From Schmidtea polychroa (taxonomy: Eukaryota): a stretch of 64,000 bases of DNA. Of the stretch, positions 6,375 through 49,106 are shown piece after piece (position 1 is the first letter of the stretch; every line of letters starts with the position of its first letter). The position numbers were made by a program, and so were the translations under genes. The stretch is taken from positions 31,498,001-31,562,000 of the forward strand of contig CM097885.1 in the NCBI GenBank assembly GCA_044892525.1, read 5' to 3'. Under the pieces are notes generated by a model. That model did not search any database. It had not been told where the DNA came from and was given only the letters and a program-made list of their open reading frames with translations.

Positions 6375-7561
6375 AGTAGTAAGATGTGTCACCTCCAGGA
6401 CATGTCACCTCCAGGACACATATATAAGTAGGTCAAGTTAAAATTAAGTAGATCAAGTTAAAATTATGTAGGTCACGACTATATAGGTATTAAAATATGT
6501 AGGTCAAGTTACTTTAAATATATGTTACCTCCAGGACACTATATAAATAAATAAGTCAAATTAAGTAGGTCACGACTATATAGTTTATAAAAAATATGTA
6601 GGTCAAGTTATTTTTAACATGTATCCCTATAATATATACATCATTCAAAAGATATTTGAGAGTAGAGTACAATGATCATACCTTCAAAGGTGTATGGTGA
6701 ATCCCTAACCTTCAAAAGGTGCAAAACCCTCGAATTTTTTCAAACTCTATAATACATGTCATTCAAAAGGTAATTGAGATGTGAGTATGATGGTCATACA
6801 ATCAAAGGTGTATGGTGAGTCCTTCACCTTCAAAGGGTCAAAAAATTTCGAATTTTTTCAAACTTTATAATATATATACATCATTCAAAAGGTATTTGAG
6901 AGTAGAGTGTGATGGTCAAACCTTCAAAGATGTATGGTGAGTCCTTACCCTCAAGTGTCAAAAACTTTGATTTTTATTCAAACTGTAAATTGATCATTTC
7001 AACAAATCTTTCAATCCCCAAAATAAATTTCCCAACTCAAAAATTTCCCAAATTTTAAAAATTCCCAAAAACAATTTTCCCAACTCAAATTTTTTCAAAA
7101 ATTAAAAAGTCCCAAAAATGAAATTCCCCAAATTTCCCAACTCAAAATTTTTCAAATTTTAAAAAGTTTTCAAAACTATTTTCCCAAATTTTCCAACAAA
7201 ATAGTAAAAGAATGTTTTACAATTTTTTTTTTTCCTCGAATACATCAAACCAAAAATTTAACAAGGTTCGTCACACAAATCTAATTTTGAAATCAAACAA
7301 ATGAATTTAATAAAAATTAAAATCATCGACATACACAACCGCCGCCCGCTCGCCCGCCCGCCGCCCGCCGCCCGCCCCGAAGGGGCTGGGCGGTAGTTTG
7401 TAAATTTGGTTTATTTTGAATATTATTATTTGATACATAGTTTTATTATTTACAATATTCAAAGTATTAATAACAAAGGTAAAGAAATAAATGTTTATTA
7501 AATGTATATAGTATGATACTCATTAATATACATTGAACATGCTTTACATTTGCGAACATTT
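6375..7561 (+). repeat. Left TIR of Polinton-1
   Basis: Reverse complement of 21418-22559. Contains TAGGTCA repeats, three tandem units of about 120 bp (6628-6990), TTCCCAA repeats and a GC hairpin. Confidence 0.95.
6421..6606 (+). promoter_or_regulatory. Array of ROR/Rev-erb-type nuclear receptor monomer sites (AT-rich + TAGGTCA)
   Basis: Five W-rich-GTAGGTCA copies (6424, 6464, 6495, 6561, 6594) plus one TAGATCA variant; mirrored in the right TIR. Function is inferred. Confidence 0.45.
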
Positions 7562-8055
7562 GAATCATGGCATTTAGAACATACAATTACATGTCCGCAA
7601 GGTAAAAACAAAACCGATACTTGATTTTCTTTACAAATGTAACAAGTTAAATACATTTTCCTACCATCATTGAGTTTTTTCCTTAGCTTATTTTCAATCA
7701 ATTCGGATTTCGATATCCATTCATAAATCAATCTACTACTATATCCTGGTTCCAGCCTTAAATCCATACAATTCCAAAAGCATTCATTCAATGAATCATT
7801 ATCTACTATTGCTTTGTCTAAATGCATCAAATAAATCGATAACTTCAAAATGCATTCATTGTAATTAAATAAATCAATCAAATATCCAATGGAGGAATGT
7901 TTGAAAATTTCTAAAATTTTTATGGTTTCCTTTTCAGTGAGAGTATCATAATTGTTCATAAAATCTTCAACGGTGCAGTTTAAAAACTTGAATGATCTCG
8001 TGGTCATCAGTAATTTCTTAATAAATTTATGAAAATACTTATATTCTGCACACAT
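7498..8055 (-). CDS. IAP-type C3HC4 RING finger protein (putative E3 ligase)
   Basis: C-terminal CYICKENQVSVLFLPCGHVIVCSKC...CKAC; homolog at 47259..47750. Confidence 0.85.
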   Translation of the reverse strand: MCAEYKYFHKFIKKLLMTTRSFKFLNCTVEDFMNNYDTLTEKETIKILEIFKHSSIGYLIDLFNYNECILKLSIYLMHLDKAIVDNDSLNECFWNCMDLRLEPGYSSRLIYEWISKSELIENKLRKKLNDGRKMYLTCYICKENQVSVLFLPCGHVIVCSKCHDSNVRKCKACSMYINEYHTIYI

Positions 8056-8413
8056 TTATAAGAGATACATTAAAACAACTCATTTATTAAACAAGAAAAT
8101 AATTTAAAATCAATAATGGTAATTTTAAGGATTATCTTCGATAGATTTTATTGAATAATGGTTCATTAAAAAGGTCTTGAAGAGCTCTATCCAATGGTTA
8201 TATATTTGAAGATATAATGTTTGTGCACAATATAGTAAGTATTATTATTTTTATTATTATTTTTATTAACAAACTACATTCTAATAAAATACTTTTACAC
8301 ATCAAATTATTAAAAAAAAAAAAAAAAAAAACCGATAATTATAAAACGAAAAAGAGACTTTACAATAATTTCTATTTTACAAAAATTCAAACAAGTCCGA
8401 TCACAGAATTAAA

Positions 8414-46805: not shown

Positions 46806-47258
46806 TCGATTACTATAATAATAATAATATTAATAATAATAATAATAATAATAATAATAATAATAATAATAATAATAAAACTTTAAACAGCTTGCATAAT
46901 AATAATAATAATAATAATAATAATAATAATAATAATAATAATAATAATAATAATAAAACTTTAAACAGCTTGCAAGGTTACTAGTCATGCTTATAATATA
47001 CATTTGATGGTTACAATTTCTACATTTTGAAAGCTATATTTTGATTGGCTATCACAATTTTTATAAATGTAAGAACAAAAGTAATTTAGTTATTAAGAAA
47101 TTTATTACTAATGATTTCTATAAATAAAACTGATGAATGTGTAACACATTTGGTAACTTTATTATTTTGTCAATATTTTTTTTTCTATATACCATTTATA
47201 GCAAGGAAGTCCTACTAGAAATAAGGAAAAATTATGTCCAACCTATTCTGAAATTTCA

Positions 47259-47750
47259 TTGAAATTTTTTAACAACACAGTTGAAGATTTTATAAATAAT
47301 CATGATACTTACAGTGATAAGCAACTCATAAATATTTTAAAGATTTTCAAACATTCCTCTATTGAATATTTGATTGATTTATTTAATTATGATAAATCCA
47401 TTTTAAAGTTATCTAGTTATTTAATGTACTTAGAAAAAATAGCGGTAAACAATGATTCACTGAATGAATACTTTTGGAGTTGTATGTATTTAAGGTTGAA
47501 ACCTGGATATAGTAGATTGATTTATGAATGGATAGCAAAAGCCGATTTGATTGAAAATAAGCTAACGAAAAAACTGAACGATGTTAAGAAAAGGTATTTA
47601 ACTTGTTCAATTTGTAAAGAAAATCGAGTTTCGGTTTTGTATTTACCGTGTGGTCACGTAATTGTTTGTTCTAAGTGTCACGAGAAGAATGTTCGCAAGT
47701 GTCAAGCCTGTTCAACACTGATTAATGAATATCATACTATATACATGTAA
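47259..47750 (+). CDS. IAP-type RING finger protein (start uncertain)
   Basis: CSICKENRVSVLYLPCGHVIVCSKC..CQAC; homolog of 7498..8055. Confidence 0.8.
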   Translation: MKFFNNTVEDFINNHDTYSDKQLINILKIFKHSSIEYLIDLFNYDKSILKLSSYLMYLEKIAVNNDSLNEYFWSCMYLRLKPGYSRLIYEWIAKADLIENKLTKKLNDVKKRYLTCSICKENRVSVLYLPCGHVIVCSKCHEKNVRKCQACSTLINEYHTIYM

Positions 47751-49106
47751 ATCAATATTTAGTTTACCTTTGTTAATTTTACATTAATTTATTGTTTAAA
47801 TAAATGTATGTTTTGTTGATTTGTTGATTTGTTGAGCGTGACCAGTACCCTTGTGAGCATTACCCATAGGGGGACAAAATATTTTGTCGGATAGACTCGG
47901 AGTATATAGACTCGGTGTATATAGATTAATAATAATAATAATAATAATAATAATAATAATAATAATAATAATAATAATAATAATAATAATAATAATAATA
48001 ATAATAATAATAATAACAATAATAATAATAATAATAATAATAATAATAATAATAATAATAATAATAATAATAATAATAATAATAATAATATCTTTAGGAA
48101 TAATAATCTTAATAACAAGATATATGGCTCATTCGAAAGGCCTTGGATTGAGCTTTAAAATGAGCTATCGACTATTAATTTTTGTTGACGGGAACTTTGA
48201 AAAAATTAAAAATAAAATAATAATATTTTTTAAAAATAATAATAAAAATAGTAATATTTTTTTAAATAATAATATGACCTTGATGACTCATCGCGATGAC
48301 TCATATGACCTTGAGAATGACCTTGGATGAGTCACGCGACCTTGAAAATGACCTTGGTGAGGCATAAGATGACTCAGATGACCTTGAAAAATTTTGATGA
48401 GTCATAGTATGAGTCATATGACCTTGAAAATTTTTTGATGAGTCATATTGTGAGGCATATGACCTTGAGAATGACCTTGAATGAGTCATTTGACCTTGAG
48501 AATGACATTAAATGAGTCATATGACCTTGAGAATGACCTTGAATGAGTCATATGACCGTGAGAATGACCTTGAATGAGTCATGGTCATTGTTTAAATGAC
48601 CTTGAAAATTTTTATGGCTCATCGGATGAGTCATATGACCTTGAGAATGACCTTGAATGGGTCATGGTCTTTGTTTAAATGACTTTGAAAATTTTTATGA
48701 GTCACAGGATGACTCAGATGACCTTGAGAATGACCTTGATGAGGCATGGTCTTTGTTCAAATGACCTTGAAAAAATTTTGGCCTTGATGAGTCACATTAT
48801 GAGTCTCATGACCTTGAAAATGACCTTGATGAGGCATGGTCTTTGTTCAAATGACCTTGAAAAATGTTTGGCCTTGATGAGTCACATTATGAGTCTCATG
48901 ACCTTGAAAATGACCTTGAGAAATTTGATGAGTCATCGGATGAGTCATGCTCTTTTTTGAATGACCTTGATGAATCATATGTCTTTGTTTAAATTTGACC
49001 TTGAAAAAAATGTACTTTTAGACTTAGAAAAATTTTTACGACCGGGGGGTGGGGGGGGGTACTGTGCTAGCGGTGCCCTGTGCCAGCGGTGACCAATCCA
49101 TCTACT
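47751..49106 (-). repeat. Right TIR of Polinton-2
   Basis: Reverse complement of 30282-31385 with an expanded motif array. Confidence 0.95.

Follow-up and report, generated by a model that had tools for sequence, protein, structure and literature searches.

What does a TATA-binding protein (TBP) do in the genome of an integrating, virus-like element? The question is raised by a stretch of 64,000 nucleotides from Schmidtea polychroa (assembly GCA_044892525.1, contig CM097885.1, positions 31,498,001 to 31,562,000 of the forward strand; GC content about 30%), called the window below and numbered from its first letter, in which two Polinton/Maverick elements, E1 (6375-22559) and E2 (30282-49106, in the opposite orientation), each encode a TBP-like protein. 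Comparison with homologues shows the gene to be an old Polinton gene and not a recent capture. We read its product as a second-wave activator of virion genes on the host's Pol II (RNA polymerase II), with a probability of roughly 0.6 on the sequence evidence at hand. What is new is a minimal TBP, widespread and accompanied by a matching promoter box, in elements that belong to a known class.

The TBP-like gene and its family

The E1 gene (18932-19444, plus strand) encodes 170 residues and lies head-to-head with the gene for the packaging ATPase; that of E2 (34277-34714, minus strand) encodes a protein 55% identical to it. Both match PF00352, at 62.4 and 54.1 bits against a cut-off of 22.9 bits. 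The structural model (170 residues, a single domain, pLDDT 95.6) was found to reproduce the two-lobed saddle of cellular TBP. The top PDB rows in Foldseek were all TBP (E about 2e-9), and structure comparison gave Z 13.4 with a root mean square deviation (rmsd) of 2.8 over 149 residues, the best non-TBP neighbour reaching Z 6.6. The fold that the earlier, sequence-only reading of the window had proposed was thus recovered by structure search.

Beyond the window, 107 homologues, mostly of about 150 residues, were found among 153 candidates; clusters at 50% identity with E <1e-30 number 63. The metagenome sample comprises the best 80 of 184 TBP loci, every one of them picked through its TBP; a Polinton core gene was observed in 38 of these 80, and in 26 of the 34 loci of at least 3 kb. 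The capsid proteins of TBP-bearing metagenome loci show three grades of identity to that of E1: 53-58%, 37-54% and 25-27%. The identities of TBP and ATPase correlate across the 26 loci with both genes (rho 0.78; 0 of 999 permutations). In the TBP tree as in the ATPase tree, members of the distant grade cluster together. In the host genome (781 Mb, four large contigs), TBP stands head-to-head with the ATPase gene in all 20 of the ATPase loci fetched. Recent capture of a host TBP was rejected, since family members in distant elements share 33-63% identity and their divergence follows that of the ATPase. The gene is also no mark of a special lineage, as had been supposed, being found in metagenomic Polintons of three divergence grades. 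The sole TBP match on a viral contig (L119) has no Polinton core gene beside it. Among the genes of other TBP-bearing Polintons are those for a ubiquitin-conjugating enzyme, for a KilA-N protein and for a PLA2-like protein (L049, 225-719; L098, 7145-8002 and 9089-9487).

Residue conservation was scored in an alignment of 85 family members, with roles taken from the kinking-phenylalanine pairs and DNA-face residues of TBP. In the C-lobe stirrup, E100 is present in 85/85, E98 in 81/85 (D in the other four) and F102 in 84/85. F41 and F118 are both invariant (85/85), so that three of the four DNA-kinking phenylalanines (F41, F102 and F118) are kept, and the first of the N-lobe pair is either replaced or deleted; position 25 holds K, P, S, R or T, with F not among the five commonest residues there. 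M49 is present in all 85 members and S71 is nearly invariant, at positions where cellular TBPs carry Thr and Asn. N116 is conserved on the DNA face and, like M49 and F118, is family-specific. The N-lobe helix H2 is missing, as indicated by the lack of any helix between residues 52 and 64 of the model and by a 13-residue gap relative to a host paralogue. In cellular TBP this basic helix contacts TFIIA, TAF1, Mot1 and Brf1. The C-lobe glutamates contact TFIIB (PMC7221094).

A partner of viral origin was not found: the Pfam scan, which covered 31 frames, detected no TFIIB family, none of the 21 genome matches to PF00382 lies inside the window, and E1 and E2 encode no RNA polymerase. The Cys-rich and acidic proteins of the elements were considered as TFIIB candidates and rejected for want of Pfam support. 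The host itself has a canonical TBP plus at least five further TBP-family paralogue loci (L009-L015). It also carries an intronless TFIIB-like gene of about 300 codons in at least 13 copies (L140, 4575-5486; L141, 4185-5096; G000:C3, 38.2-39.1 Mb; C1, 23.8-24.2 Mb); the L141 copy, next to a Polinton polymerase fragment, is part of a repeat whose unit measures about 7.9 kb. This host family sits outside the elements and was found to have no TATAAAC box.

The upstream box and how it may be read

In E1 and E2, the heptamer TATAAAC was observed upstream of the ATPase (at -35/-33 in E1/E2), the basic protein (-33/-33), the major capsid protein (-42/-42) and a small protein encoded between the capsid genes (-56 and -101/-101). 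Bcl-2 has TATAAAT and the candidate single-stranded DNA-binding protein (SSB) TATAAAA, and the TBP gene of neither element has TATAAAC. For the metagenome, upstream counts were restricted to loci with at least 110 nt before the start codon (70 of 80 for TBP), and they overstate independence because the loci are related and several are nearly identical. Within this sample, ATAAAC lies at most 110 nt before the start in 27/27 ATPases (2.0 expected), 8/8 major capsid proteins (1.1), 6/6 small proteins (0.6) and 10/12 minor capsid proteins (0.8); the counts are 11/18 for the integrase (1.6), 6/9 for the basic protein (1.5), 3/6 for the protease (0.4) and 5/70 for TBP (5.1). The full TATAAAC at -70 to -20 was found in 18/27 ATPases and 0/70 TBP genes. 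The box accompanies all 13 ATPases of the distant grade, and 18 of 20 genome ATPase loci against a background of 29 in 1015 ATGs. In the 27 ATPase boxes, position 7 is C in every case, the boxes having been selected by motif, and position 1 is C or G in seven.

Several boxes fall in coding DNA because the genes abut. The E1 ATPase gene (18189-18815, minus strand), for instance, ends in Y-K-Q codons that form the box of the next gene, and across ATPase loci this C-terminal triplet is coded TAT AAA CA in 20 of the 21 loci that have it (about 10 expected from codon use), the triplet being missing in 4 of 25. In TBP-DNA structures, reading of the TATA box at its 3' end falls to the N-lobe of TBP. 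We infer that the 3' end of the Polinton box, where it departs from consensus, matches the remodelled N-lobe.

The best reading, by analogy with herpesvirus late genes, is that TBP and the matching box act as a one-protein switch on host Pol II. These Polintons would rely on the host for nuclear transcription by Pol II and for splicing, and expression would begin with the TBP-like gene, from a promoter of ordinary host type with or without a TATA box. Its product of 150-170 residues, as sequence and model show, retains the saddle with its two lobes and the C-lobe stirrup that would contact host TFIIB, and has lost the N-lobe kinking phenylalanine as well as the N-lobe helix, to which host regulators bind. 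This protein would then recognize (T/C)ATAAAC(A/G), a box that precedes the genes for the packaging ATPase, core and capsid proteins by about 30-50 nt, and drive their expression in a second wave. The SSB would serve protein-primed replication, and the Bcl-2, RING ligase, surface and acidic proteins would be exchangeable cargo, probably keeping the host cell alive or modifying it. A one-protein switch of this kind would imply a staged, virus-type expression programme of integrated elements, and the timing of virion-gene expression bears on whether Polintons act like true viruses. If its specificity is indeed altered, so small a TBP would also offer itself as a candidate part for orthogonal transcription. 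For a wider proposal, that of a broad animal Polinton branch with the smallest known viral transcription switch, a TBP that uses host TFIIB and Pol II and escapes host TBP regulators through loss of a helix, a private box lodged in upstream codons and, in this host, introns acquired through long nuclear residence, we consider the odds to be evenly balanced.

Several observations weigh against the activator. TATAAAC also stands ahead of the polymerase gene (-53/-85) and the acidic gene (-40/-38), and the protease has TATAAAT; a strict division into early and late genes is weakened by the first two. The earlier claim that the elements control their own transcription gains real, though indirect, support from the TBP fold and from a box placed before packaging and capsid genes but not before TBP. 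The position of the lost phenylalanine can be aligned in two ways, and the conserved F21 might stand in for it. Host TBP may itself read the box, because a plant wild-type TBP was crystallized on the C(-25) TATA variant (title of PDB entry 1qn3), which we take to be TATAAAC. A TBP-less Polinton that could serve as a control was found neither in viral contigs (capsid and ATPase queries), nor in a phage collection, nor among the 20 genome ATPase loci. Finally, the polymerase is broken in both copies, by one in-frame stop in E1 and by several breaks in E2.

The alternative that survives best takes the box to be a TATA variant for host TBP and the viral TBP to be a booster of all element promoters or a TFIIB decoy that dampens host transcription, with no temporal switch. 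It accommodates the boxes before the polymerase and acidic genes and the host-type TBP structure on the C(-25) variant, and the almost invariant TFIIB glutamates fit a decoy equally well. However, the C or G at position 1 of seven ATPase boxes is unlike a host-optimized TATA, the TBP gene avoids the box, and the DNA-face residues M49, N116 and F118 are kept in a family-specific manner; we regard this alternative as doubtful. A role as a repressor, or as a replication or packaging factor on the box or the terminal inverted repeats (TIRs), which would silence virion genes in the integrated state or organize the ends, appears improbable. The head-to-head placement with the ATPase would permit autoregulation, loss of the N-lobe cofactor helix could block productive initiation, and the TATAAAC sites of E1 and E2, mostly ahead of genes, include a few in the TIRs; a repressor, however, needs no TFIIB-binding glutamates, and the 31-49 nt that separate box and start codon correspond to core-promoter spacing. 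Slightly less probable again is that a transposon which no longer forms particles carries the accessory block as passive baggage, the likeness of E1 and E2 reflecting recent descent and recombination only, which would suit interiors that are 74-97% identical and the coding breaks and broken polymerases of both copies, but is already largely refuted for TBP and SSB and runs against TBP key residues kept over 33-60% identity in unrelated samples, against matches elsewhere in the genome without internal stops (104/112 for the integrase, 150/150 for the surface protein) and against the retention of capsid, protease and ATPase genes across families.

Architecture, introns and cargo of the two elements

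E1 is flanked by the target-site duplication (TSD) AATTTA (6369-6374 and 22560-22565) and E2 by TTCGTC (30276-30281 and 49107-49112), each of 6 bp, and both elements start with AGTAG and end with CTACT. The left TIR of E1 (6375-7500, plus strand) is about 1.1 kb long, its partner lying at about 21430-22559; TIR arms are 99.6% identical in E1 and 94.0% in E2 (1093 aligned columns). Two complete TSD-flanked elements had been claimed: the ends are exact, whereas completeness fails inside, where both copies have coding breaks. The claim that their TIRs are unrelated was borne out, a single 31-nt hit being the only match. Unrelated TIRs do not make the elements independent, however, because the interiors are related: DNA identity is 74% in the protein-primed polymerase (PolB) gene, 86-89% in the capsid and integrase blocks and 97% over 17138-18443. 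Protein identities range from 27% (Cys-rich) and 35% (acidic) to 74% (RING), 76% (PolB) and 94% (integrase). Other Polinton families of the genome have the same gene order with modules swapped, their capsid, protease and ATPase genes being kept. The block shared by E1 and E2 is thus attributable to descent and recombination and not to convergence. As for its order of TBP, Cys-rich, SSB and acidic genes, described earlier as syntenic, the order is common to both elements, but the acidic gene is inverted relative to TBP.

E1 and E2 are copies of recently spreading, recombining animal Polinton families of the adintovirus type, abundant and young. In planarians, knock-down of PIWI is reported to de-repress Polintons (PMC8532177). 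The E1 integrase has at least 112 genome matches at 96-100% identity, eight of them with an internal stop. The scored genome matches of the E2 Bcl-2 exon (150/150, at 94-100%) and of the E2 surface gene (150/150, at 96-100%) are likewise lower bounds on copy number. Among mosaic families at L142-L147, one joins an E1-like minor capsid gene (92%) to an E2-like SSB gene (90%), and another lacks the integrase intron. At about 4,517,000-4,534,000 of contig G000:C2 (L002, L121 and L165), the E1 integrase, the E2 Bcl-2 exon and the E2 surface gene all recur at 100%, with a spacing nearly equal to that of the window, so that the two-element region seems to be duplicated on another chromosome-sized contig.

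The Polinton features present are long TIRs, a 6-bp TSD, protein-primed PolB, an rve integrase, an A32/FtsK-type ATPase and an adenain-type protease. All core genes of E1 lie on the minus strand. PolB (8414-13229) matches PF03175 at 83.2 bits (cut-off 25.8 bits), with four predicted phase-1 leader introns and the in-frame stop at 11039-11041. It is followed by the protease (13489-13865; PF00770), with a probable but less certain 38-nt intron after the first codons, the probable major capsid protein (13893-15116, assigned by position and size), the small conserved protein of 120 residues (15113-15475; in 7/81 loci) and the probable minor capsid, or penton, protein (15468-16535; kept in 13/81 loci). 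Beyond these lie the rve integrase with a chromodomain (16481-17575), interrupted by an 81-nt microsatellite-rich GT..AG intron (17107-17187), a 75-residue frame overlapping the integrase start (17406-17633) and a basic protein of 177 residues (17637-18170), probably a virion core precursor. The core block of E2 (34814-40106, plus strand) comprises the ATPase, basic protein, overlapping frame, integrase (intron 36441-36494), minor capsid, small protein, major capsid and protease, with frame changes near 35185 (ATPase), 37760 (minor capsid) and 38620 (major capsid). The E2 PolB gene (40683-46460, plus strand) has five predicted phase-1 leader introns, a stop at 43379-43381 and frame changes near 42690, 45870 and 46190. 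The ATPase (PF04665) and protease exceed their Pfam cut-offs; the unspliced integrase frame stays below, with rve at E 3e-5 plus a chromodomain, and is 53-58% identical to uninterrupted homologues. Profile searches with the capsid proteins gave no direct match to double or single jelly-roll families. Their assignment is probable, from gene position and from the 26% identity of the E1 major capsid protein to an L094 protein that has a weak Capsid_N match (E 0.007); the minor capsid gene lies one gene from that of the major capsid protein, in keeping with PMC4028283. The frame over the integrase start, which begins Met-Gly and recurs in E2 (35995-36222) and in L056, L060, L087 and L091, possibly encodes a myristoylated virion protein.

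The elements had been called intron-rich, and 19 GT..AG candidates, predicted from sequence, agree with this: nine in E1 (four in PolB, two in SSB, and one each in the integrase, acidic and protease genes) and ten in E2 (five in PolB, and one each in the integrase, Bcl-2, acidic, Cys-rich and protease genes). Most are 44-56 nt long and 85-96% AT; the protease introns, of 37-38 nt, are less certain, and the last PolB intron, a long one, measures 418 and 1163 nt in the two elements. The nine PolB leader introns are all in phase 1, and each of the seven internal exons has a length divisible by three and no stop in the frame so implied, a regularity that is partly circular because intron sites were chosen by eye. 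Independent support comes from the integrase insertion, which is missing from one sister family and from metagenomic homologues, and from the Bcl-2 exons, which abut exactly on an intronless homologue. Assembled contigs of four sequencing runs over 17200-21300, one of which reads through the SSB introns unspliced, give no verdict on splicing or expression: none of the 17 runs listed is recorded as RNA, the 15 joints listed all stem from a presumed DNA run, and poly(A)-like loose ends in one run may reflect internal priming. In the E2 polymerase leader, a unit of intron plus exon occurs as a tandem duplication with a 118-nt period (40849-41102), a direct route to intron gain. A 29/42-nt repeat with GCATGCAGCTAC occurs in the long E2 polymerase intron (41800-42221) and past the polymerase gene (46687-46807). 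Introns are not confined to this host, because related metagenomic elements (L041, L043, L045, L051, L056 and L065) show a GT..AG intron-like stretch directly ahead of the SSB frame.

The candidate SSB is encoded by three exons in E1 (20008-20602, plus strand; introns 20027-20073 and 20250-20302) and by a single exon in E2 (33022-33450, minus strand). Its model is confident and suggests, with moderate strength, a T7 gp2.5-like OB fold: the top four PDB neighbours are all of that type (Z 6.8-7.2, below the tool's reliable level; rmsd 2.8-3.9 over 101-118 aligned residues; 4-10% identity). All 19 viral matches at E <0.001 are unnamed or uncharacterized, and homologues lie near TBP in 21 of the best 80 loci. 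The four neighbours, T7 gp2.5, Enc34, DUF2815 and African swine fever virus CP312R, have the OB fold suggested for the candidate, which unlike the T7 gp2.5 type has no acidic tail, an acidic protein being encoded next door. That protein (E1, 20675-21060, minus strand, intron 21001-21047, exon 2 with 28% D+E; E2, 32534-32889, minus strand, intron at the same position) matched no family in the Pfam scan, nor did the Cys-rich and surface proteins, for which atlas look-ups gave no usable lead. The Cys-rich orphan of E1 (19437-19805, plus strand; 122 residues, nine Cys) has homologues in other families of the genome, and its E2 counterpart (33790-34175, lower end approximate, minus strand) has an intron (34106-34153) and an in-frame stop (33924-33926). 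An identity as LxCxE 'Oncoid' was rejected, the motif being missing.

RING proteins are encoded by both elements (E1, 7498-8055, minus strand; E2, 47202-47750, plus strand), with a C-terminal C3HC4_3 domain (PF13920) above cut-off. They had been described as IAP-type; the RING stands in both, but searches up to E 0.05 returned RING families only and no BIR domain, so they are not IAPs and are best read as putative ubiquitin ligases. The additional Bcl-2 gene claimed for E2 was supported by homology. This two-exon gene (31954-32456, plus strand; intron 32239-32282) encodes a protein with a hydrophobic C-terminus, and its sequence supports the BH1/BH2 core and C-terminal membrane anchor of the Bcl-2 family. 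Each exon is weak alone (E 0.076 for exon 1 against A1/Bfl-1 and 0.11 for exon 2 against Bcl-xL); together they are collinear with an intronless Bcl-2-family frame (L159, E 8e-13), and a sister family (L163, 67% identity) lies above the Pfam cut-off. Dozens of open frames of 700-3058 residues in the genome hold a Bcl-2-like segment, and long frames of this kind are described for planarian Burro retroelements (PMC6431247). As to the earlier proposal that the elements control host cell death, Bcl-2 homology is supported in E2 alone and the RING proteins have no BIR domain, so such control would be a putative function. The E2 surface protein (31337-31837, minus strand; 166 residues) is, as the sequence-only reading had it, predicted to be a secreted or membrane-anchored coiled-coil glycoprotein, being hydrophobic at both ends with five N-glycosylation sequons.

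E2 is flanked by an intronless adenylate/guanylate cyclase frame of 1078 residues (51557-54793, minus strand) and an RRM protein frame (63312-63998, minus strand). Two similar coiled-coil frames in GC-richer segments (3786-4280, minus strand; 61092-61673, plus strand) probably belong to another repeat family, and 859-1944 resembles the end of a non-LTR (long terminal repeat) retroelement.

Comparison with known systems

What distinguishes E1 and E2 from known systems? Adintoviruses with an Alpha-type PolB (Starrett et al., 2021; PMC8502044) resemble the two elements in PF03175 PolB, rve integrase, A32/FtsK ATPase and adenain, and also in probable hexon and penton, TIRs, 6-bp TSD and module exchange between lineages. 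Bcl2, IAP and SSDBP labels already stand on animal adintovirus maps in the same account, so these parts of the accessory kit, proposed earlier as special, are known cargo; Bcl-2, RING and SSB matter less here because they have been reported. A TBP label appears there in the legend of one MELD virus figure, in which the carrier genome is not visible, and the passages covered mention no promoter box, cascade or spliceosomal introns. That label aside, no Polinton TBP family or promoter box was found in the openly searchable literature, the scope of which leaves aside subscription papers and Repbase; the term TATA is missing in PMC10748475, PMC8097293 and PMC11161782, and the term TBP in PMC11161782. 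Intact vertebrate Mavericks (Barreat and Katzourakis, 2021; PMC8097293) share core genes, TIRs and 6-bp TSD, but are described with eight conserved intronless open reading frames, whereas 9-10 introns per element plus extra genes are predicted here. Dinoflagellate Polinton-like elements (PMC11957031) resemble E1 and E2 in having introns inside integrated elements; their introners are transposon-derived insertions, in contrast to the short, AT-rich, host-type candidates found here at positions common to families.

For the proposed switch, the closest parallel is ORF24/UL87 of beta- and gammaherpesviruses, a TBP mimic that acts on TATT late promoters (10.1101/2025.08.25.672222; PMC7498053; PMC8360532). 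As in the scheme proposed here, a viral protein with the TBP fold works with host Pol II and with a variant of the TATA box that precedes late genes. ORF24, however, is a large multidomain protein, one of six in a viral complex, that makes direct contact with Pol II and, according to modelling, is incompatible with TFIIB, whereas the Polinton protein is a bare saddle of 150-170 residues that keeps the TFIIB stirrup; the herpesvirus system is an analogy, and not a case of membership. The TBPs that large dsDNA viruses encode (Ravarani et al., 2020; PMC7221094) are similar in their two lobes, their conserved L5.1 phenylalanines and the loss of the N-lobe regulatory signature, but these viruses mostly lose the TFIIB glutamates (about 40% conserved) and encode their own TFIIB, unlike E1 and E2, which keep the glutamates. 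If the activator reading is correct, Polintons would represent a third viral use of TBP, with host TFIIB, beside its use with a virus-encoded TFIIB in large DNA viruses and within a multi-protein complex in herpesviruses.

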